Shown here piece by piece: positions 1,074 to 38,156 of a DNA stretch of 38,876 nucleotides. The position numbers were made by a program, and so were the translations under genes. The stretch is from a virus (taxonomy: Duplodnaviria; Heunggongvirae; Uroviricota; Caudoviricetes), in IMG/VR virus record IMGVR_UViG_2526164597_000012; one strand, 5' to 3'. The first letter of the stretch is position 1, and each line of letters starts with the position of its first letter. Below the pieces are notes generated by a model that saw only the letters and a program-made list of their open reading frames with translations, was not told the DNA's origin and ran no database searches.

Positions 1074-1125
1074 TGATGCGCCGCGCGATAAATGCACTCT
1101 ATCTTGTGCGATAAATGGCATCCAC
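1074..1125. repeat. Left terminal region with putative transposase-binding repeats (2x CGATAAATG)
   Basis: TGATGCGCCGCGCGATAAATGCA...GTGCGATAAATGGCA; the reverse complement of the right end has TGAT and GATAAATG at the same offsets. Confidence 0.55.
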
Positions 1126-1151
1126 GCGGCGTTTCATTATTTGAAAAAGAA

Positions 1152-1724
1152 TTACATTTCAGGTTGCGTTATGACAGTCCCAACAGGGTGGTAGCGGTAG
1201 ATCGTTGACAGTCCAATATCATAGATAATTGCCAGCCGCTTTCTGTCATACCCTTTCTGGAGCAATCTTGCGATCTGCTCATGCTGCTCCTTCGTCAGTT
1301 TCGGGCGACGTCCTCCAACTCTCCCTTGTGCTCGCGCAGCAGCCAGTCCTGCCAGCGTGCGCTCAACTATCAGTTCACGCTCCATTTCTGCCAGTGCACC
1401 CATCATATGAAAAAAGAACCTTCCCATCGGAGTGCTGGTATCGATTGAATCCGTCAGACTGCGAAAATTGACACCTTTTGCGCGTAGCTCTTCTGTGAGA
1501 GCAATGAGGTGTTTCATTCTTCTACCCAACCGATCCAGCTTCCAGACCACCAATGTATCCCCTCTTTTAAGGCACTTTAAAGCGCGTTTCAGGCCTGGTC
1601 GTTCCGACTTGGTTCCGCTCATTTTGTCCTCAAAAATCTGTTCACATCCTGCGCACATTAATGCATTGCGTTGCAAATCTGTGTTTTGGTCATTTGTTGA
1701 CACACGTATGTAGCCAATCAGCAT
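1152..1724 (-). CDS. gin: Gin-family serine DNA invertase (190 aa)
   Basis: MLIGYIRVSTNDQNTDLQRNAL... with catalytic Ser region and C-terminal HTH; near-colinear with Mu Gin as recalled; RBS AAGGGAG 8 nt upstream of ATG at 1724; ORF-track entry 1152..1919 is an upstream extension. Confidence 0.9.
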   Translation of the reverse strand: MLIGYIRVSTNDQNTDLQRNALMCAGCEQIFEDKMSGTKSERPGLKRALKCLKRGDTLVVWKLDRLGRRMKHLIALTEELRAKGVNFRSLTDSIDTSTPMGRFFFHMMGALAEMERELIVERTLAGLAAARAQGRVGGRRPKLTKEQHEQIARLLQKGYDRKRLAIIYDIGLSTIYRYHPVGTVITQPEM

Positions 1725-1778
1725 TAAAAATACTCCCTTTTGAGTGGTTAAAGTACTGAGATAATGTGGGGAGGATTT

Positions 1779-1804
1779 GAGAGATAAACGTTGGTTTAGG
1801 GGAA
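1779..1804. other. Candidate gix-like crossover site A (..AAACG TT GGTTTAGGGGAA)
   Basis: Right half-site GGTTTAGGGGAA matches Mu gix half-site GGTTTACAGGAA (as recalled) at 10/12; sits at the 5' edge of the conserved cassette block, next to the gin promoter. Confidence 0.4.
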
Positions 1805-2299
1805 GGCTCGGCGCTGCCCGTTGGTGTGCCCGTTCCATGGCCCTCAGCCACACCGCCAACGGGGTGGCTGAAATGCAATGGTGCAGCATTTTCTTCTGAA
1901 ATGTATCCCAAACTGGCAAAAGCCTACCCCACCAATAAATTACCGGATTTACGGGGAGAATTTATTCGCGGTTGGGATGATGGGCGCGGGGTGGATGCTG
2001 GCCGCGCTTTGCTTAATTGGCAGCCACACACAATTTTGGATCATGCACACTATATGGAATTATGGACCGGGGATGGACTTGCCGCGGGAAGTACACGGGA
2101 AGGAGTAAACCCTGGAATACTGGCTACATACGGGGACGGGGGAATAGTTAAAACAGACGAACCCGGTTTAAATGTGCCTTCCTCACTACGAGCCGTTAGC
2201 TCTCGTAATGTAAAACGGTTTGGTGAAATTAGTGGAAATGTAGGTACAGAAACTCGCCCTCGCAACGTTGCATTTAATTACATCGTAAGAGCCGCATGA
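1781..2299 (+). CDS. Promoterless alternative tail-fibre C-terminal cassette A (Sv-like)
   Basis: Frame open from 1781; begins with the same ~65-aa block (NVGLGEGSALPVGVPVPWP..TPPTGWLKCNGAAFSSEMYP..RGEFIRGWDDGRG) found in the expressed tail fibre, then a unique segment, then conserved ETRPRNVAFNYIVRAA end. Confidence 0.7.
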   Translation, partial: EINVGLGEGSALPVGVPVPWPSATPPTGWLKCNGAAFSSEMYPKLAKAYPTNKLPDLRGEFIRGWDDGRGVDAGRALLNWQPHTILDHAHYMELWTGDGLAAGSTREGVNPGILATYGDGGIVKTDEPGLNVPSSLRAVSSRNVKRFGEISGNVGTETRPRNVAFNYIVRAA

Positions 2300-2768
2300 A
2301 AACGTTGGTTTGGGGGAAGGCTCTGCACTGCCCGTTGGTGTGCCTGTTCCATGGCCCTCAGCCACACCACCAACGGGCTGGCTGAAATGTAACGGTGCAG
2401 CATTTTCTTCTGAAATGTACCCAAATCTGGCAAAGGTTTACCCAACGTTAAAATTACCTGATTTACGCGGTGAGTTTATCCGTGGCTGGGATGATGGGCG
2501 CGGGGTGGATGCCGGAAGGGGCATCTTAAGCATGCAGGGGTGGTTAACAGGAAGTCATTATCATAATATTCGGTCATGGGATGCGTGGGATAACACGGTA
2601 CTGGTGCCAAATGACAAAAGAGGGGATAGTCTGTTGTCGACAGATAATGCCGTCCGGCAAGGTGCAATTAACGGTAGATTTACCAGTCAATACAGAACGG
2701 AATCCTCAGATGGGAATGAAAACCGCCCACGCAATATTGCCTTCAATTATATTGTGAGAACCGCATAA
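2289..2768 (+). CDS. Promoterless alternative tail-fibre C-terminal cassette B (Sv-like)
   Basis: Same conserved N-terminal block and C-terminal ENRPRNIAFNYIVRTA; unique middle; stop overlaps the tfa start (TAATGA). Confidence 0.7.
   Translation, partial: EPHENVGLGEGSALPVGVPVPWPSATPPTGWLKCNGAAFSSEMYPNLAKVYPTLKLPDLRGEFIRGWDDGRGVDAGRGILSMQGWLTGSHYHNIRSWDAWDNTVLVPNDKRGDSLLSTDNAVRQGAINGRFTSQYRTESSDGNENRPRNIAFNYIVRTA
2293..2318. other. Candidate gix-like crossover site B (..GAAAACG TT GGTTTGGGGGAA)
   Basis: Same half-site motif as site A at the equivalent position of cassette B. Confidence 0.4.
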
Positions 2769-3379
2769 TGAATAACGCGATATTAAATGATGACCTTATT
2801 GCCGTACAGGCAGGAAACATCGTCGTTTATAACTATGATGGTGAGACACGGGAATATATTTCCGAATCAACTGAATATCTTGCTGTGGGTGTTGGTATTC
2901 CGGCTAATTCCTGTTTAGATGCCCCAGGCGCACATAAATCTGGCTATGCTATTCGCCGTTCGGAGGATTTAAATTCATGGGAGTATGCGCCAGACCATCG
3001 TGGTGAAACCGTCTATAGCACTGACACGGGAAACACCGAAGAAATCACGGCGCTGGGTGACTACCCGAAAAATACAACCACTATCGCCCCGTTAACACCA
3101 TACGATAAATGGGATGGTGAAAAATGGGTGACAGATACTGAGGTACAACATCGTGCCGCAGTAGAAGCGGCAGAAACCAAGCGCCAGTCACTGGCTGATG
3201 CGGCAATGGATTCCATAAGTCTGATTCAGTTGAAGTTGCGGGCCGGGCGGAAGTTGACGCAGGCAGAAACCACCCGGCTTAATGCCGTGCTGGATTATAT
3301 AGACGCGCTGAACGCAATGGATATAAACATGGCACCAGATATCAACTTGCCGGAAATACCACTGGCATCAGCCAGTTGA
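2768..3379 (+). CDS. Tail fibre assembly protein (Tfa/U-like chaperone)
   Basis: 203 aa; immediately follows cassette B with overlapping stop/start; size, position and sequence style typical of Mu U / lambda Tfa family. Confidence 0.7.
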   Translation: MNNAILNDDLIAVQAGNIVVYNYDGETREYISESTEYLAVGVGIPANSCLDAPGAHKSGYAIRRSEDLNSWEYAPDHRGETVYSTDTGNTEEITALGDYPKNTTTIAPLTPYDKWDGEKWVTDTEVQHRAAVEAAETKRQSLADAAMDSISLIQLKLRAGRKLTQAETTRLNAVLDYIDALNAMDINMAPDINLPEIPLASAS

Positions 3380-3385
3380 ATATAA

Positions 3386-4687
3386 CTAAGCCGCCCTCAC
3401 GATATAGTTAAATGCAATATTGCGGGGGCGGGTTTCACTACCACCTGTGTTACCAATACTTCCTCGTGAATGAAGCGTTGGTGATGGAATCAAACTCCCT
3501 CCTGTATTTGTGGCATCAAGCCCCCTGCCTTGTGTATATGTTTTTTTGAAAATCGTAGCCAACTCCCATTCATCTTTTGTGTCATATCCATCGTTAGCTA
3601 CAACAATATGGCGATGTTTTTCCAACATCCCGTTTTGAATGCTCAATAAAGCGCGTGCCGCATCAATTCCTCGCCCATCATCCCAGCCACGGATAAATTC
3701 TCCGCGTAAATCCGGTAATTTATTGGTGGGGTAGGCTTTTGCCAGTTTGGGGTACATTTCAGAAGAAAATGCTGCACCGTTACATTTCAGCCAGCCCGTT
3801 GGTGGTGTTGCTAAGGGCCATGGAACAGGCACGCCAACGGGCAGTGCAGAACCTTCTCCTAAACCAAGGTAATTGAGGACTTCTTTTATACTGCCCATAG
3901 CGATAATAGCGCGACCAATAGCTGTAAGGGTTGTCAGTGCTGCGCGGTCTGCTCCGGTAAAATAAGGCAACCGATCTGCTGCAGTGGCAAGTCCTGCCAG
4001 AGCAGTGAGCGTGGCATCTGCCGGTTGTTTTCCGTTTGCCAGATCGTATGCAGCCTTGACCGCTTTCGGTGTGGCGGCCAGTATTTCAGACGTGCTGTTG
4101 ATGTCACTGCTCAATTGTACGGTGCCTTTTGCCGTCAGCGAGGCAGCAGGCACTCCCGTTATCTGACTCCACGGGTGAGTGTGGCTGACGGGCGCCTTGC
4201 CGGCTGCAAGGTCGTATGCAGCCTTGACCGCCTTCGGCGTGGCAGCCTCAGTTTCTGATTGACTGTCCGTGGCGCTGCTCAGTTGTACGGTGCCTTTTGC
4301 CGTCAGCGAGGCAGCAGGCACTCCCGTTATCTGACTCCACGGGTGAGTATGGCTGACGGGGGCCTTGCCGGCAGCCAGGTCATATGCAGCCTTGACGGCC
4401 TTTGGTGTGGCGGCCAGCGTTTCAGAGGTGCTGTTGGTGGCACTGCTCAGTTGGGTGAACCCCTTAGCTGTCAGTGTCGCGTCCGGGTGGTTACGGGAAC
4501 GTACGTGTTCAGCCAGTGACTGTGCGGCTTCCTCCGTTTTTTTCTTCAGCCATTTCGTCCTGTTTGCCAGTTGCCGGGGGGCTCGATTTGATATCCCGTC
4601 TGCACCACCCAGAACCGGATCTGATGTCTCCAGTTGATAGATATTTTCTTCCCACTTTTCTGTTTCATTCAGGTTTCCCATAATCAA
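3386..4687 (-). CDS. Tail fibre protein (S-like): constant N-terminal part + currently joined variable C-terminal cassette C
   Basis: 433 aa; internal tandem fibre repeats; C-terminal ~160 aa start with the conserved cassette block (LGLGEGSALPVGVPVPWP...) and end ETRPRNIAFNYIVRAA. Confidence 0.85.
   Translation of the reverse strand: MIMGNLNETEKWEENIYQLETSDPVLGGADGISNRAPRQLANRTKWLKKKTEEAAQSLAEHVRSRNHPDATLTAKGFTQLSSATNSTSETLAATPKAVKAAYDLAAGKAPVSHTHPWSQITGVPAASLTAKGTVQLSSATDSQSETEAATPKAVKAAYDLAAGKAPVSHTHPWSQITGVPAASLTAKGTVQLSSDINSTSEILAATPKAVKAAYDLANGKQPADATLTALAGLATAADRLPYFTGADRAALTTLTAIGRAIIAMGSIKEVLNYLGLGEGSALPVGVPVPWPLATPPTGWLKCNGAAFSSEMYPKLAKAYPTNKLPDLRGEFIRGWDDGRGIDAARALLSIQNGMLEKHRHIVVANDGYDTKDEWELATIFKKTYTQGRGLDATNTGGSLIPSPTLHSRGSIGNTGGSETRPRNIAFNYIVRAA
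3854..3879. other. Candidate gix-like crossover site C inside the tail-fibre gene (inverted relative to sites A and B)
   Basis: Minus-strand ..AATTACC TT GGTTTAGGAGAA at the constant/variable boundary (codons ~273-279). Confidence 0.4.
3960..4480. repeat. Tandem in-frame repeats (~168 bp / 56 aa, ~2.6 copies) within the tail-fibre gene
   Basis: Protein repeats LTAKG..QLSS..SE..AATPKAVKAAYDLA.GK.PVSHTHPWSQITGVPAAS; DNA copies near 4044, 4212, 4381; causes the repeated plus-strand shadow ORFs 4025..4258 and 4259..4519. Confidence 0.75.
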
Positions 4688-27951: not shown

Positions 27952-28055
27952 ATCGCCCCACAGGAATGCGCTGTGAGCCGACCAAGGTTCAGTCAGTCTC
28001 GCGAGACCTGACCAGACTGCCATATTTTTTAATAATTGTAAAAGGCTTACAGATT

Positions 28056-28820
28056 ATGAAAATGCAGACATTACCCATCGTGCCGTGGATTGGTGGCAAA
28101 CGCCGCCTTGCAAAACACATTCTGCCGCTGTTTCCGGCGCATGAATGTTATGTGGAGCCGTTTTGTGGGGCAGCAGCGCTCTATTTTCTTAAGACACCCG
28201 GCAAGATCGAAGTCATCAATGATATCAACGGTGAACTGGTGAATCTGTACCGGGTGGTAAAGCATCACCTGGAAGAATTTGTCCGCCAGTTCAAATGGGC
28301 GCTGGTCAGCCGTCAGATCTACAAATGGCTGCAGATCACCCCGGAAGAAACACTGACGGATATCCAGCGTGCGGCACGGTTCTACTACCTTCAGAAGCAG
28401 GCGTTTGGCGGCAAGGTGGCAGAGCACAGCTTCGGTACCTCCACCACATCCCCGCCACGCTTCAACCTGCTACGTATTGAAGAAGAACTGTCAGCGGCAC
28501 ACCTGCGGCTTTCCAGAACAGTCATAGAACACATGGACTGGCAACAGTGCATTGAGCGTTATGATCGTCCGCACACGCTGTTCTACTGCGACCCACCGTA
28601 CCTGGGTACGGAAGGCTATGGTGTGGATTTTCCTGAAGGGAACTACTCGCGGCTGGCAGAGCTGGCCCGGTGCATCAGAGGAAAAATGATAATTTCGGTG
28701 AACGACATCCCGCAGATGCGCGAGGTGTTCACTGGACTGAACATACAGACAGTGAATATCAACTACAGTCTGGCGGGTAAACCCACGCCGCGCCGTGAAC
28801 TGCTAATCTGCAACTTCTGA
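28056..28820 (+). CDS. DNA N6-adenine methyltransferase, Dam-like (orphan)
   Basis: 254 aa; N-terminal EPFCGAAAL (FxGxG-like AdoMet motif) and catalytic DPPY (..FYCDPPYLG..); no adjacent restriction endonuclease gene; start at ATG 28056 with AAAGG upstream. Confidence 0.8.
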   Translation: MKMQTLPIVPWIGGKRRLAKHILPLFPAHECYVEPFCGAAALYFLKTPGKIEVINDINGELVNLYRVVKHHLEEFVRQFKWALVSRQIYKWLQITPEETLTDIQRAARFYYLQKQAFGGKVAEHSFGTSTTSPPRFNLLRIEEELSAAHLRLSRTVIEHMDWQQCIERYDRPHTLFYCDPPYLGTEGYGVDFPEGNYSRLAELARCIRGKMIISVNDIPQMREVFTGLNIQTVNINYSLAGKPTPRRELLICNF

Positions 28821-28936: not shown

Positions 28937-29293
28937 TCAGCCTGCGATTTTTCCTGGTTTTGGCTGAGTATAGAATCGCCCAATCTCAAGAAATGAGCGT
29001 TGTTGGTCTGGTGTCATGTCGTCAAAAGTATCTATTAGTTTTTGTTTTTCTGGGGAAATTTGATTCTGGTTTCTAGTCATACCATCTGTGCTCATTCCAG
29101 TGAGCAACCAATTTACATCAACATTAAACTCTTGATGCATCTTTAACAGAAACTCCCCTCCAGGCATCGCCTTTCCATTTTCAATCTGACTGATACCACC
29201 ATTAGAAATACCTAAACGAGCTGCAAATTCTCTCTGGTTCAACCCTGCTTTCTTCCTCACAGAAATAACGCGCTCTCCTATATCTTTGCTCAT
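28937..29293 (-). CDS. Prophage repressor, XRE-family HTH (c-like)
   Basis: 118 aa; N-terminal HTH ..KKAGLNQREFAARLGISNGGISQIENG..; divergent from the early operon with an operator palindrome between them. Confidence 0.8.
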   Translation of the reverse strand: MSKDIGERVISVRKKAGLNQREFAARLGISNGGISQIENGKAMPGGEFLLKMHQEFNVDVNWLLTGMSTDGMTRNQNQISPEKQKLIDTFDDMTPDQQRSFLEIGRFYTQPKPGKIAG

Positions 29294-31199: not shown

Positions 31200-32969
31200 A
31201 TGACCCCGGCACTGACTGAAAAACTGGTTGAAACAGCCCGCGCGGCACGTGACGCGGGGCATGGTAAACGCGGTGCAATATACGACGCTGCCTGTGCTGA
31301 ACTTGGCATGTCCCGCGCCACTCTGCTGCGCAGGCTGAAGGAGGTATCTGTGACTGATAAACGCAAAAAACGCGCCGATGCCGGGCGCAGCGCCCTGACC
31401 CGCGACGAAGCCGCGCTGATATCTGCCACACTGCGTGAGGCCACCCGCAAGAACGGTAAGCGTCTCTATTCCATCGCAGATGCAGTGGAAACCCTGCGGG
31501 CTAACGGCTTTATCACCGCAGGCAGAACAGATGAAACCACCGGTGAGTTTTTCCCGTTGTCTGAAGATGCCATCAGCCGTGCTCTGCGTAACTATGGCCT
31601 GCACCCGGAACAACTGGATGCCCCTGCACCACATACCGAAGTGGCCAGTCTGCATCCCAATCATGTCTGGCAGATTGACGCCTCACTCTGCACGCTTTAC
31701 TACCTGAGCAATGGACATAAAGGGCTGCAGGTGATGGACAGCGCGAAGTTCTACAAGAACAAGCCCGCTAACCTTGCCCGTATCGCCAGTGACCGCGTGT
31801 GGAGTTACGAGATTACCGACCATGCCAGCGGCTGGATTTACGTTGAGTATGTGACGGGCGCGGAATCAGGTGAGAACCTGTGTTCTGTGCTTATCAACGC
31901 CATGCAGGAGCGTGGCGGCGCAGACGTGCTGCACGGCGTGCCGAAAATACTCTATCTCGACCCCGGCTCGGCAAACACCGCGGGTATGACGAAAAACATG
32001 TGCCGCTCACTGGGCATCGACCTGATAGCGCACAAGCCGCATAACGCCCGCGCCACCGGACAGGTGGAAAAGGCGCGTGACATTATCGAACGCAAGCTGG
32101 AGCCGGGTCTGAAGTTCCGGCCGGTTCACAGTCTGGAAGAACTCAACGCGCTGGCCGCGAAATGGCGCAGCCACTTTAACGCCACGGCTGTTCACAGCCG
32201 CCACGGTAAAACCCGCACGGATATCTGGCTGAAGATTACTGCTGAGCAGCTGAAAAAAGCGCCTTCCGTTAAGGTATGTCGTGAACTGGCTGTGGCGGCA
32301 CCAGAACTCCGCAAAGTCACGCCAAAACTTCGTGTCTCGTTCCGGGGCACTGAATTTGACGTATCAACGGTACCGGGCGTACTGGTTGGTGAAAAACTGA
32401 TGATTACCCGTAACCCATGGCGCAGCGATGTGGCACAGGTGGTTCTGACTGGTGAGGACGGCCACGAGACGTTCTTCCTGGTCGAAGAGGTCAGAAAGAA
32501 CGAGTTTGGCTTTGCTGAAGGCGCGGCGGTATTTGGCGAAAGTTACAAAGCCCTGCCGGAAACCCCGGCACAGATGGCGGCAAAAGAAACCGAAGCGCTG
32601 GTTACCGGTACAGACAACGCCGCAGATGCAGCCGCCGCACGCAAGGCGAAGGCGCTGCCGTTCGGCGGGCGGCTTGACCCGTATAAACATATCGACGACA
32701 CCACACTTCCGGCCTATATGCCGAAGCGTGGTCAGGCCTCTGACGTACGCGGGCCGCGCACTGAACAACGTCCCATGACTCATGTGGAGGCCGCGAAAGC
32801 CCTGCGCGATAAGTTCAGCACCGACGGCCTTACCTGGACGCCGGAACATTACCGCCAGTTAACGGCACAGTACCCGGACGGCGTACCGGAAGCCGCACTG
32901 GATGAAGTCATGGCCACGCTGACCACACCGGCCCGCAGCAGTGTTATCAGCATTGTTAACGGCAACTGA
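31200..32969 (+). CDS. DDE transposase (transposition protein A-like; resembles retroviral-integrase-fold rve/Tn552-TnsB-type more than MuA)
   Basis: 589 aa; N-terminal HTH-like region; ..HVWQIDAS.. and ..LYLDPGSANT.. resemble the first two acidic-residue motifs of DDE integrase-fold transposases; followed by an ATPase gene. Confidence 0.75.
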   Translation: MTPALTEKLVETARAARDAGHGKRGAIYDAACAELGMSRATLLRRLKEVSVTDKRKKRADAGRSALTRDEAALISATLREATRKNGKRLYSIADAVETLRANGFITAGRTDETTGEFFPLSEDAISRALRNYGLHPEQLDAPAPHTEVASLHPNHVWQIDASLCTLYYLSNGHKGLQVMDSAKFYKNKPANLARIASDRVWSYEITDHASGWIYVEYVTGAESGENLCSVLINAMQERGGADVLHGVPKILYLDPGSANTAGMTKNMCRSLGIDLIAHKPHNARATGQVEKARDIIERKLEPGLKFRPVHSLEELNALAAKWRSHFNATAVHSRHGKTRTDIWLKITAEQLKKAPSVKVCRELAVAAPELRKVTPKLRVSFRGTEFDVSTVPGVLVGEKLMITRNPWRSDVAQVVLTGEDGHETFFLVEEVRKNEFGFAEGAAVFGESYKALPETPAQMAAKETEALVTGTDNAADAAAARKAKALPFGGRLDPYKHIDDTTLPAYMPKRGQASDVRGPRTEQRPMTHVEAAKALRDKFSTDGLTWTPEHYRQLTAQYPDGVPEAALDEVMATLTTPARSSVISIVNGN

Positions 32970-32979
32970 GGAGGGAAAC

Positions 32980-34146
32980 ATGCTGGTACTGAAGCAGCAA
33001 CTGAAAGAGGCCCGTATTCCACAGGCGGTGGTGGCGAGAGCTGTCGATGTTTCTGAGGCCACGCTGGCCCAGATTGTGAATCATAACGCGTGGCCCCGCA
33101 CCAGCCCCGGAGAAGTGCGCCGGCGTCTTGCGTCCTGGCTGGAAAGTCAGGGGATTGATACAACGAAGAGTTTTGATGCTGTACAGGGCGCGGCCACGCC
33201 CCGTACAGCGGGTACCACAGATAAAACGAGCCTCAGTGAGGAAGAGAATATGTTACTCAAAAAACAGGTGTTATTTCCAGCAACCAAAAAAGCGTTTGGT
33301 CTTTTCCGTGACCCGTTCGCCGACGAAGCCATGCAGGGTTCTGATGATGTGTTCACCACCCCGGATATTCGCTACGTGCGTGAGGCGTTGTACCAGACAG
33401 CCCGTCATGGTGGGTTTATGGCCGTCATCGGTGAGTCCGGTGCGGGTAAATCCACGCTGCGCCGCGACCTGACTGAACGTATCAACCGCGAGAATGCGCC
33501 GGTAATTGTTATCGAGCCATACATCATCGCTATGGAAGACAACGATGTGAAAGGGAAAACCCTGAAGGCAGCAGCGATTGCCGAAGCCATTATCAGTACC
33601 ATCGCACCACTGGAAAGCATCAGACGCAGTCAGGACGCCCGCTTTCGCCAGTTGCATCGCGTCCTGAAAGACAGCAGCCAGGCGGGGTTCAGCCACGTTC
33701 TGGTGATTGAGGAGGCCCACAGTCTGCCCATTCCGACACTGAAACACCTCAAACGCTTTTTTGAGCTGGAGTCCGGTTTCAAAAAACTGCTGTCCATCGT
33801 GCTGATTGGCCAGCCGGAACTGGCGACAAAACTGTCTGAACGCAATATGGAAGTCCGTGAAGTCGTTCAGCGCTGTGAGGTGGTCGAACTTCTGCCTCTG
33901 GACAATAACCTTGAAGAGTTTCTGACGTTCAAACTGCAACGGGCCGGTAAACAACTGACGGACATTATGGACGCCAGCGCAGTGGATGCCATACGTGCCC
34001 GCCTGAGCAATCCGGGAAGTCATCGTAAAAATATGGTCAGCCTGCTGTATCCGCTGGCCGTCAGTAACCTGGTAATAGCCGCCATGAATCTGGCCGCTGA
34101 AATCGGGGTTCCACAGGTCAACGCTGACGTTGTCAAAGGGGTTTAA
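32980..34146 (+). CDS. Transposition ATPase (B-like, AAA+ with Walker A GESGAGKST)
   Basis: Start at ATG 32980 with GAGGAGGG RBS (ORF-track entry begins at an upstream GTG); Walker A and Walker B-like ..HVLVIEEAH.. Confidence 0.75.
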   Translation: MLVLKQQLKEARIPQAVVARAVDVSEATLAQIVNHNAWPRTSPGEVRRRLASWLESQGIDTTKSFDAVQGAATPRTAGTTDKTSLSEEENMLLKKQVLFPATKKAFGLFRDPFADEAMQGSDDVFTTPDIRYVREALYQTARHGGFMAVIGESGAGKSTLRRDLTERINRENAPVIVIEPYIIAMEDNDVKGKTLKAAAIAEAIISTIAPLESIRRSQDARFRQLHRVLKDSSQAGFSHVLVIEEAHSLPIPTLKHLKRFFELESGFKKLLSIVLIGQPELATKLSERNMEVREVVQRCEVVELLPLDNNLEEFLTFKLQRAGKQLTDIMDASAVDAIRARLSNPGSHRKNMVSLLYPLAVSNLVIAAMNLAAEIGVPQVNADVVKGV

Positions 34147-34445: not shown

Positions 34446-34976
34446 ATGGCAAAAAGTACAAAAGGGGCAAAACGTATCAAAGCCGCAGCAGCACTCTGGG
34501 TGCCGGGGACACGCGAAGAGGTCATTGAGGGAATCAGACTGCTTGGTGACGCGCAACGTGAACTGGTCAGGGCTGAAACAGAAATGAATGACACCATTGG
34601 CGACATCACTGCACGTTATGCCCCGCTCACCGAGAGCCTGAAAAAACGCATGGCCGAACTGCAGTCCGGTATCCAGACATGGTGTGAGGCGCACCGTGAT
34701 GAACTGACCGGCAACGGGAAGGTGAAGTTCGCTAACCTCACCACCGGCGAGGTGCAGTGGCGAAACCGTCCGCCGTCAGTCAGCATTCGCGGGGCGGATA
34801 ATGTCATTGAACTGCTGAGACGTCTGGGGCTTGAGCGCTTTATTCGTGTAAAGGAGGAAATAAATAAAGATGCCATTCTGAATGAAAAAGAGGCTGTGAA
34901 AAATATTCCCGGTATTACCATAAAAAGTGATATTGAGGATTTTTCAATAATTCCTTTTGAGCAGGATGTGCAGTAA
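34446..34976 (+). CDS. gam: Host-nuclease inhibitor protein Gam
   Basis: 176 aa; strong colinear similarity to Mu Gam as recalled (..RLETEMND.., ..WCEA.RDELT..GKVK.ANL.TG.V.WR.RPPSVSIRG.., ..SDIEDFSIIPFEQ). Confidence 0.85.
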   Translation: MAKSTKGAKRIKAAAALWVPGTREEVIEGIRLLGDAQRELVRAETEMNDTIGDITARYAPLTESLKKRMAELQSGIQTWCEAHRDELTGNGKVKFANLTTGEVQWRNRPPSVSIRGADNVIELLRRLGLERFIRVKEEINKDAILNEKEAVKNIPGITIKSDIEDFSIIPFEQDVQ

Positions 34977-35546: not shown

Positions 35547-35843
35547 ATGACACGAAACACCGAACTCACCCGCACCGCCCTCTACCGTCTGGCCCTGCAG
35601 CGTTTCGGGCCGGACGCACAGGCCCTGAAACTGGCAGAAGAGGCCGCTGAACTGGCGGCCAGTGCCGCCCGCAACCTGAACGGACAGGGCAGCGAAAGTG
35701 ACCTCGCGGCAGAGCTGGCAGACGTGGAAATCATGACAGAGCAACTGCGCCTTCAGGGGATGGACCGGCTGATTGACTTCCACAAACAGAAAAAACTGGA
35801 ACGTCTGGCTGCACGACTGGGCGTGATTTACACGAACGAGTAA
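35547..35843 (+). CDS. MazG-like nucleotide pyrophosphohydrolase domain protein
   Basis: 98 aa; ..LAEEAAELAASAAR.. and ..DLAAELADVEIMTEQL.. resemble the EExxE / D-containing helices of small MazG-type proteins. Confidence 0.5.
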   Translation: MTRNTELTRTALYRLALQRFGPDAQALKLAEEAAELAASAARNLNGQGSESDLAAELADVEIMTEQLRLQGMDRLIDFHKQKKLERLAARLGVIYTNE

Positions 35844-35857
35844 CCGGGAGGCATTCA

Positions 35858-36073
35858 ATGGCTGACATACTCAGGGAAATCACCGCATGGACACTGATTC
35901 TTACTGGCCTGGCGACATGCCTCAGTGCGGGGGCAGCCCTGGCTGCCCTGCTGATGCACATAACAACACAGTGGTTATGGGAAAAGCTTAAAGCAGCATA
36001 CAGCCTGAAAGAGCTGTCCGACGCTGTCCGGGCATGGAAACGGCAGAAAAATACCGGAGATACAGAACAATGA
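35858..36073 (+). CDS. Small membrane protein
   Basis: 71 aa with one TM segment (WTLILTGLATCLSAGAALAALLM). Confidence 0.4.
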   Translation: MADILREITAWTLILTGLATCLSAGAALAALLMHITTQWLWEKLKAAYSLKELSDAVRAWKRQKNTGDTEQ

Positions 36074-36753
36074 CAGACCAGAATAAACACATTGAGAAAC
36101 TGAAAAAGTTGCTGGCGCTGGCCGCATCCGGCAACCCGCACGAGGCCGCTCTGGCACTGCGCCGAGCCCGTAAACTGATGGATGTTCACGGCATCACACA
36201 TTCCGACATTGCTATGAGTGATATTGATGAAACCATCAGTCACTACTGGCCGACAGGCAGTCTCCGTCCACCGCGCTACATGCTGGGCCTGATGAACATC
36301 ATCCGCGAGGTATTTGGTGTTAACTCCATCATTCACCCCGGCACGCATCCGTCTGTGGGGTTCTACGGCAACCGGGAACGTGCGGCACTGGCTGCATACA
36401 CCTGGGAAGTGCTGGCCCGTCAGCTGAAAAAGGCGCGTCAGCAGTATATCAGTGCACAGAACAAAAGAATAAAAACCGCCACCCGCACCAGCCGTGGAGA
36501 CCAGTTTGCCGAAGGCTGGGTGCTGGCCGTTATCAGTGAAATACAGTCCTTTGCCCTGACCGATGATGAGCGTGAACTGATGCAGCAGTGGCTGGAACAT
36601 AAATACCCGCAGACGCAAACCACCAGGGCGCGTAAACCGGGAAGAAGCCGCAATGGCGACGCCTCGCGCTATGCGGGGTTTCGTGAAGGGCAGAACGTCA
36701 GACTGCACCGCCCGGTCAGTGGGCAGGAACAACAGAAACTGGAGGCCAGATGA
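36070..36753 (+). CDS. Conserved phage early protein (DUF2786-like N-terminus)
   Basis: Start at ATG 36070 overlapping upstream stop (ATGA); N-terminal ..KLKKLLALAASGNPHEAALALRRARKLM.. signature. Confidence 0.5.
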   Translation: MTDQNKHIEKLKKLLALAASGNPHEAALALRRARKLMDVHGITHSDIAMSDIDETISHYWPTGSLRPPRYMLGLMNIIREVFGVNSIIHPGTHPSVGFYGNRERAALAAYTWEVLARQLKKARQQYISAQNKRIKTATRTSRGDQFAEGWVLAVISEIQSFALTDDERELMQQWLEHKYPQTQTTRARKPGRSRNGDASRYAGFREGQNVRLHRPVSGQEQQKLEAR

Positions 36754-38150: not shown

Positions 38151-38156
38151 CCAAAT
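38151..38156. repeat. Target-site duplication, right copy (CCAAAT)
   Basis: See left copy. Confidence 0.7.

Follow-up and report, generated by a model that had tools for sequence, protein, structure and literature searches.

A small Min-like tail-fibre inversion array with three crossover sites in a Bcepmuvirus-like prophage

The virus record IMGVR_UViG_2526164597_000012 (Caudoviricetes) is a stretch of 38,876 nucleotides, referred to here as the window. A ~37.1-kb transposable prophage (1074-38150), inserted in yehR (DUF1307), fills nearly all of it. Between positions 1152 and 4687 lie the gene for a DNA invertase, two silent tail-fibre cassettes (A and B), a single gene for a tail-fibre assembly protein (tfa) and the tail-fibre gene itself. 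There is little doubt that this locus is a switch in which a serine invertase of the Din family acts at three crossover sites to provide one fibre with three alternative tips.

The invertase gene (1152..1724, minus strand) encodes a protein of 190 amino acids (aa) that belongs to the Din family of serine DNA invertases (Gin/Cin/Pin/Min). An N-terminal resolvase domain (PF00239, E 8e-51) with the catalytic-serine motif MLIGYIRVST (Ser9/10) is followed by a C-terminal helix-turn-helix (PF02796, HTH_7, E 1e-12). It shares 100% identity with the enzyme in an ST131 phage record of prophage origin, and 76.7% with Mu Gin. Direct counts give 139/190 residues the same as in Gin and 133/186 the same as in Cin. 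A preliminary description of this DNA had placed a Gin-type invertase next to the fibre cassettes, and the domain matches and residue counts agree with that. The longer open reading frame (ORF) 1152-1919 is over-extended, and the true gene is 1152-1724. Nucleotides 19-90 of the gene (1635..1706, minus strand) make up a putative Fis-dependent recombinational enhancer. This region lies at the same position as the annotated enhancer in P1 cin, and its identity is 54/72 nucleotides to cin and 55/72 to gin (75-76%), compared with 65-69% over the whole gene.

The tail-fibre gene (3386..4681/4687, minus strand) encodes three Phage_fiber_2 repeats and a Collar domain, and probably starts at the ATG at 4681 rather than at the TTG at 4687. 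Its constant 5' part, Sc (3868..4681, minus strand), holds the three repeats (PF03406), which form the shaft and are encoded by about 2.5 tandem units of 168 nucleotides (4037-4453). The copy number of the shaft repeat varies among relatives: compared with 431 aa for the fibre described here, some database proteins have 384 aa, and the fibres of HSP60 and cS51a have 537-543 aa. The remainder of ORF 3386-4687 is cassette C (3386..3865, minus strand, 159 codons), which is the expressed tip and contains the Collar domain. Cassettes A (1793..2299, 168 codons) and B (2307..2768, 153 codons) lie silent on the plus strand, and the stop codon of B overlaps the start codon of tfa (ATAATG).

All three cassettes match PF07484 and share one layout. 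An N-terminal block is conserved at 65-69/72 residues, an HxH motif follows directly after it (DHAHY in A, SHYHN in B, KHRHI in C), and the middle is only ~25-35% identical. Of the last 17 residues 13-15 are again identical, so the ending of about 15 codons that had been noticed as common to the fibre gene and both cassettes is real. In gp37 and gp12 the chain exits the collar, builds, around HxH motifs that bind metal, the distal part responsible for receptor binding, and then returns to end in the collar. The N-terminal block of the cassettes aligns to the collar of T4 gp37 (2xgf residues 27-93) and the last 24 aa of the tip align to the extreme C-terminus of gp37 (2xgf 219-242, ...NIAFNYIVRLA). 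Judged by sequence, then, these are collar tips of the T4 gp37/gp12 type, and the conserved stretches at the two ends of a cassette are predicted to form the halves of a single gp37-type collar domain around a variable HxH insert. In cassette A, for example, the order would be collar N-half, variable part and collar C-terminal strand. A collar split in this way would explain why the N-terminal block and the last 17 residues are conserved and the middle is divergent.

The cassettes begin within long repeats. A direct repeat (1786-2001 and 2300-2515) extends over 216 nucleotides at 88% identity, and both copies are inverted with respect to 3636-3870 (223-235 nucleotides, 86-89% complementary). 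The preliminary description had these conserved blocks at ~190 bp. The repeats are real, but at 216-235 nucleotides they are longer than that. The cassette ends are inverted repeats as well, with 2243-2295 and 2707-2767 matching 3387-3447 (53-61 nucleotides, 79%).

A search for crossover sites found the motif ACS-TT-GGTTTRGGRGAAGG at exactly three positions in the window and in none of 100 shuffles of it, and every occurrence is a full site of 26 bp, with two 12-bp half-sites around a TT core. Site a, proximal to the invertase (1779..1804, plus strand), reads GAGAGATAAACG-TT-GGTTTAGGGGAA. The internal site b (2293..2318, plus strand) reads CGCATGAAAACG-TT-GGTTTGGGGGAA, and its outer half-site holds the stop codon of cassette A. 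Site c, within the fibre gene (3854..3879, minus strand), reads TCCTCAATTACC-TT-GGTTTAGGAGAA. In other words, the sites have a common TT core, and the reacting partners a and b are inverted with respect to c, as is the case for sites of Din-family enzymes. In P1, cixL is CAATCCTAAACC-TT-GGTTTAAGAGAA and cixR, read inward, is TTATCCAATACC-TT-GGTTTAAGAGAA. The core of the Mu gix site is GA/TC. Because of the TT core and a layout like that of P1 cixL and cixR, sites a, b and c are cix-like rather than gix-like. The gix-like half-site previously proposed at each block was thus a recurring site motif, present three times in the window, but it is one half of a full 26-bp site that is closer to P1 cix.

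The outer half-site of a is also that of the sole invertase-proximal site in two relatives with only two sites, CE10 and E-1246. Therefore, a is the canonical partner and b an added internal site. Internal sites of the b type, with the stop codon of the preceding cassette in the outer half-site, recur in the six-site array of a P2-like prophage and the ten-site array of a P1-like plasmid.

Inverting the DNA in silico at the TT cores predicts four isomers from the three sites, with three in-frame fibres: C of 431 aa, B of 425 aa and A of 440 aa. In the captured arrangement (state 0), Sc-C is followed by antisense tfa, B and A. Inversion between b and c (state 1) gives Sc-B with tfa immediately after it in the sense orientation. 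Inversion between a and c (state 2) gives Sc-A followed by B and then tfa, which is again sense but distal. The fourth isomer (state 2') is Sc-A with C, then antisense tfa and B.

All four isomers are found in public E. coli assemblies as copies of this element. The 431-aa fibre of state 0 is encoded on nine public contigs, and the five state-0 loci that were compared, from four insertion sites, have 0-2 mismatches in the 3530 bp from invertase to fibre. One of the state-0 loci, on contig AIHN01000049.1 of GCA_000250475.2, has the window's own yehR flank with 0 mismatches. Other strains carry near-identical copies of the prophage at no fewer than four further chromosomal positions. Used as a query, the predicted Sc-A junction retrieved a natural E. 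coli protein of 440 aa with ~100% identity over the 265-aa query, which differs from the predicted fusion by one substitution (V to I). The contigs that encode it show both A-expressing arrangements. Over 3530 bp, locus L019 departs by 1 mismatch from the a x c product made in silico, and locus L020 departs by 2 from the fourth isomer. The 700 bp of host DNA that flank L019 and L020 are identical to those of a state-0 copy, L022. In complete E. coli genomes the Sc-A junction search gave only matches of ~85%, in P1-like plasmids.

State 1 is represented by DLI.5a, which has the same cassette set and is the b x c product. It is 97.9% identical after in-silico inversion, whereas without inversion there are 903 mismatches. 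Another pair differs by the same event at different chromosomal sites. Inverting cS51a between b and c reproduces HSP60 with 0 mismatches in 3222 bp, and the first cassette of this pair is a variant one. The use of site b is shown both by DLI.5a and by the fourth isomer L020, and the natural isomers together mean that all three sites are in use. Exchange is conservative and falls exactly at the core dinucleotide, such that inversion in silico at the cores recreates natural copies with 0-2 mismatches. The three alternative fibre C-termini predicted earlier are therefore present as three in-frame fusions and as natural isomers that use all three sites.

A sister element provides further evidence. 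Prophage Phi2 of the ST131 strain EC958 belongs to the same prophage family. Its invertase is identical in protein sequence, its sites a and c have the same outer half-sites, and it likewise combines three cassettes with one tfa. Its cassettes are distinct from those described here, as is its tfa allele, which is 66% identical at the nucleotide level. Inversion of Phi2 was seen in PacBio reads of one EC958 culture by Forde et al. (2014), who listed both outer sites and described the switch as a two-site system with a 2067-bp segment (PMC4134206). Site a matches the 3' site of Phi2, which recombines in those data, and site c is identical to the 5' site. The present analysis adds an internal third site and four isomers to the Phi2 array. 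Inverting EC958 between a and c yields U14A with 0 mismatches in 4022 bp. U14A and U13A are separated only by an inversion in which site a recombined with the internal site: there are 0 mismatches in 7201 bp, and the inner half-sites have changed places exactly at TT. For each predicted ST131 junction, at least 60 genomes have a match at 100% identity. Solving for the isomers from the counts of four junction searches gives roughly 174, 120, 180 and 65 genomes, with tfa antisense in ~55%, although these figures are rough because joins in two pieces and at least one rearrangement between prophages also enter the coverage counts.

A separate arrangement involving Phi2 is that of strain 4/0 (L014, NZ_CP023849.1 999233-1006540). 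Here the Phi2 array (Sc-cas1, X, tfa) is followed by the convergent, complete fibre gene of a P2-like prophage, and the Sc-type site (TCCTCAATTACC-TT) recurs in this second fibre gene. The arrangement points to an inversion by the invertase between two prophages and so to a large chromosomal inversion, although an assembly artefact is possible.

A mechanism can be proposed from these observations. The invertase, probably aided by host Fis bound to the enhancer in the 5' part of its own gene, would pair c with either a or b, and strands would be exchanged at the TT in the centre of each site. The inverted pairs that remain after a first inversion, two in number, would be able to react again, so that segment X (cassette A) and segment Y (B-tfa-C) would cycle through the four isomers. 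One constant shaft would thereby be supplied with three different tips, each a split collar with a variable HxH receptor-binding part, and the tips would probably differ in host range. Most likely, the one Tfa serves every collar-type tip as a generalist, and it would be co-transcribed with the fibre in 2/4 isomers.

Several points weigh against this proposal. Fis-dependent enhancer function at 1635-1706 is suggested by position and by the 75-76% identity. Inversion in this lysogen itself is suggested by the near-identical copies in other strains. Among phage isolates searched for close A or C tips, the best match was 60-63% identical, and the same search was uninformative as to whether A and C tips usually own a tfa. 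RefSeq splits the fibre gene of the ST131 copies, in the shaft-repeat part, into 'partial' fragments, which implies that inversion can persist in a possibly defective prophage. Finally, a scan for an independent tfa promoter, or for a terminator between C and tfa, found nothing above chance (3 promoter-like sites, compared with 4.7 expected). The chaperone supply for the C and A-C states is therefore in doubt.

The last point concerns the one aspect of the locus that is difficult to explain. The tfa gene (2768..3379, plus strand) encodes a chaperone of 203 aa that matches PF02413 (Caudo_TAP, E 1e-30, residues 78-198), and its nucleotide identity to the tfa genes of P2-like phages is about 81-82%. 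It is the only tfa and is antisense to the fibre gene in the captured orientation, exactly as first described. However, the accompanying claim that the captured state is the only one with no co-oriented tfa is incorrect, because tfa is also antisense in the fourth isomer, which has a natural copy in L020. A sequence search with Tfa against the PDB gave zero hits at E<0.01.

One tfa per array is the rule for arrays of collar-type cassettes. This is true of CE10 with two cassettes, of the element described here and the ST131 element with three, of F95 with six sites and of pNord122_1 with ~nine cassettes. In E-1246 the second tip is of a non-collar (gp53-like) type, and it brings its own second tfa. 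The presence of one tfa per collar array, with a second only alongside a non-collar tip, favours a generalist Tfa that acts on the shared collar. PMC9608196 describes a variable N-domain of Tfa that attaches to the fibre and a conserved C-domain responsible for trimerisation. The same paper, citing North et al. (2019), states that such fibres require Tfa in order to fold and trimerise correctly.

What, then, happens in the isomers with antisense tfa? Perhaps they are programmed OFF states. In this scenario lysogens with Sc-C or Sc-A/C would, on induction, give virions without functional fibres, and the locus would be an on/off switch as well as a specificity switch. This is possible, though we would not favour it. 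It fits the antisense position of tfa in half of the isomers, the translational coupling of tfa to B through ATAATG, the scan that found no independent promoter above chance and the requirement for Tfa in fibre folding and trimerisation stated in PMC9608196, which cites North et al. (2019). Against it, antisense isomers are common (state 0 on 9 contigs at several insertion sites, and roughly 55% of the ST131 copies), which is also what neutrality in lysogens predicts. Having half of the isomers dead seems costly, yet the design recurs in six- and ten-site arrays.

Alternatively, Tfa might reach the fibre whatever the orientation of its gene, by a weak constitutive or late promoter in the array, by read-through from outside or by cross-complementing Tfa proteins of other prophages, which most E. 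coli strains possess. We regard this as a comparable possibility. Many such loci exist in E. coli, with up to 25 matching places per genome, and inversion in trans by another prophage's enzyme, as proposed for EC958, shows that such loci can interact (PMC4134206). The conserved C-domain, described as common across phages in PMC9608196, hints that Tfa proteins are exchangeable. However, the same paper reports the N-domain to be fibre-specific, and the 3 weak promoter-like sites in the array fall short of the 4.7 expected by chance.

It is improbable that B alone is a working tip with its cognate Tfa, and that A and C are decaying or parked cassettes. tfa does directly follow B and no other cassette, and the adjacency of B and tfa is kept in a P2-like prophage and in a P1-like plasmid. 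However, A and C are intact, with both collar halves and the HxH motif, and they are 97-98% conserved in another type of prophage. Moreover, chromosomal copies and several P1-like plasmids have A joined to the shaft. We consider it very unlikely that the switch mainly serves the host, in the sense that the prophage expresses an inversion product which keeps other phages from adsorbing. There is a precedent in PinQ and StfE2 of e14 (PMC12529663), and inversion continues in the ST131 copies whose fibre gene is annotated as fragmented, but the prophage here looks complete and the cassettes show no promoter of their own above chance in the scan. Homologous recombination between simple duplications, in place of site-specific inversion, can be set aside almost completely, because although blocks of 216-235 nucleotides at 86-89% identity could serve RecA-dependent exchange, the isomers diverge precisely at the TT core, where the 12-bp inner half-sites have changed places and nothing else is altered, an intact invertase adjoins the array, and the site motif occurs three times where none is expected by chance.

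The lone chaperone gene of a collar-cassette array flips together with the array, which leaves about half of the isomers unable to co-transcribe it. It is tempting to speculate, though we do so hesitantly and with some doubt, that this amounts either to an undescribed on/off layer or to fibre folding that is independent of Tfa in cis, or tfa expression independent of orientation. In the first case virions of the antisense isomers would be fibre-defective, and a fraction of induced cells would release non-adsorbing particles. If, conversely, those virions were infective, gp37-like collar tips would fold without a cis-encoded Tfa, or tfa would be expressed irrespective of orientation. Either outcome would revise the view of how such switches work. 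The records of phages Cartapus, vB_EcoM-673R5, PhiKM and 503046 give no usable indication of which isomers are infective. The locus could serve as a test bed for how a single Tfa serves several tips while its own orientation changes.

The closest known system is Min, the multiple-inversion system of plasmid p15B and of P1-like phage-plasmids, reportedly described by Sandmeier, Iida and Arber in 1990-1992. Min of p15B has six sites and 240 isomers, compared with three sites and four isomers here. Both systems have a Din-family serine invertase, more than two 26-bp sites, internal sites that overlap the stop codon of the preceding cassette, and a constant fibre 5' part combined with alternative collar-type 3' cassettes. 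With more than two sites and one 5' part joined to at least three alternative 3' parts, the locus is an array of the Min type. However, its carrier is a transposable prophage of the Bcepmuvirus-like kind and not a P1-like plasmid, and its invertase gene lies beyond the array and is read in the direction of the fibre gene, an order also seen in Mu. It is a Min-like arrangement, then, but not the Min locus itself.

The P1 Cin system has the same site layout and TT core, with the inner half-site GGTTTAAGAGAA in P1 and GGTTTAGGAGAA here. The 5' part of cin contains the enhancer, and the putative equivalent in the element described here has the same position. P1 differs in having two sites and two states, and its S and S' tips are not short collar cassettes and each has a tfa (U and U'). 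The Mu G segment has the same gene order at the genome end (baseplate, fibre, invertible segment, invertase) and an invertase that is 73-77% identical. However, Mu has a GA/TC core, two sites and two tfa genes (S-U and U'-S'), and its S tip matches the present fibre in the shaft repeat only (5yvq). With three sites, three tips, one tfa and a TT core, the locus is therefore not a two-state G segment of the Mu type. The shufflon of R64 is similar in that multiple overlapping invertible segments alter the C-terminus of a surface-recognition protein. It relies on the tyrosine recombinase Rci and 19-bp sfx sites, whereas here there is a serine invertase with 26-bp cix-like sites. Because the recombinase is of the serine type, the resemblance is one of analogy. 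The preliminary description, which spoke of a shufflon/Min-like arrangement rather than the two-state segment of Mu, was thus right about Min and right about Mu, but the shufflon applies by analogy only.

This is a small Min-type array of the Din family, of a kind known since about 1990, with a sister element documented in 2014 and no new mechanism. The novelty implied at first was overstated, given that inversion of the EC958 sister was shown in 2014 (PMC4134206) and that multi-cassette arrays with a single tfa are common. Its value lies elsewhere. It is a clean, natural and minimal multi-site serine-invertase array with four isomers at single-nucleotide resolution in public assemblies, and so a compact model for site choice and for the bias of Din invertases towards inversion over deletion. 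It is also a guide to annotation, since the label 'phage tail protein' is routinely given to silent cassettes in error and isomers can pass for assembly errors.

The cassettes are not confined to this prophage. In the P1-like plasmid pNord122_1 (L012), one tfa accompanies ~9 cassettes and 10 sites of this type with a TT core. Cassettes like A, B and C are among the ~9 at 87-92% identity, B is again directly before tfa, and the A-B-tfa-C block is 85-92% identical. The A-B-tfa-C block is 97-98% identical and in the same order in a P2-like prophage of E. coli F95 (L004), which has six sites and a different invertase (74% nucleotide identity). The occurrence of the block in F95 and in pNord122_1 indicates that it moves between three unrelated phage lineages. 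The locus of E-1246 (L005), with the same invertase, the same B-tfa pair, two sites and a short tfa (417 bp) accompanying its gp53-like tip, is a hybrid of the collar-array type and the classical two-tfa type.

The prophage that carries the switch appears complete, with 37 kb, a target duplication and an intact late operon. The duplication, CCAAAT, was recognised from the junction sequences. It brackets the prophage at 1068-1073 and 38151-38156, and the prophage ends are TG...CA. The right end (1074..1151) lies directly beside the invertase gene, and the flanking halves of yehR match DUF1307. Domain matches identify a DDE transposase, a MuB-like ATPase and Gam, and the related GenBank record PhiKM is classed as Bcepmuvirus. 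The carrier is a Bcepmuvirus-like prophage with the switch at the end of its late operon, where genes for a P2/Mu-type baseplate (gpI-, gpJ-, gpW- and gpV-like) lie upstream of the fibre gene. An Rfam scan of the window gave zero matches. The early genes are on the plus strand (transposase 31200-32969, MuB-like 32941-34146, Gam 34446-34976) and the late genes on the minus strand, and the two sets diverge from a repressor-like gene (28937-29293). The regulatory region also holds a DNA methyltransferase gene (phrog_56; 27966-28820, plus strand). Opposite the early operon, in antisense orientation, is an ORF of 333 aa (35731-36732, minus strand) without a PHROG match, which may be a moron or a spurious ORF.

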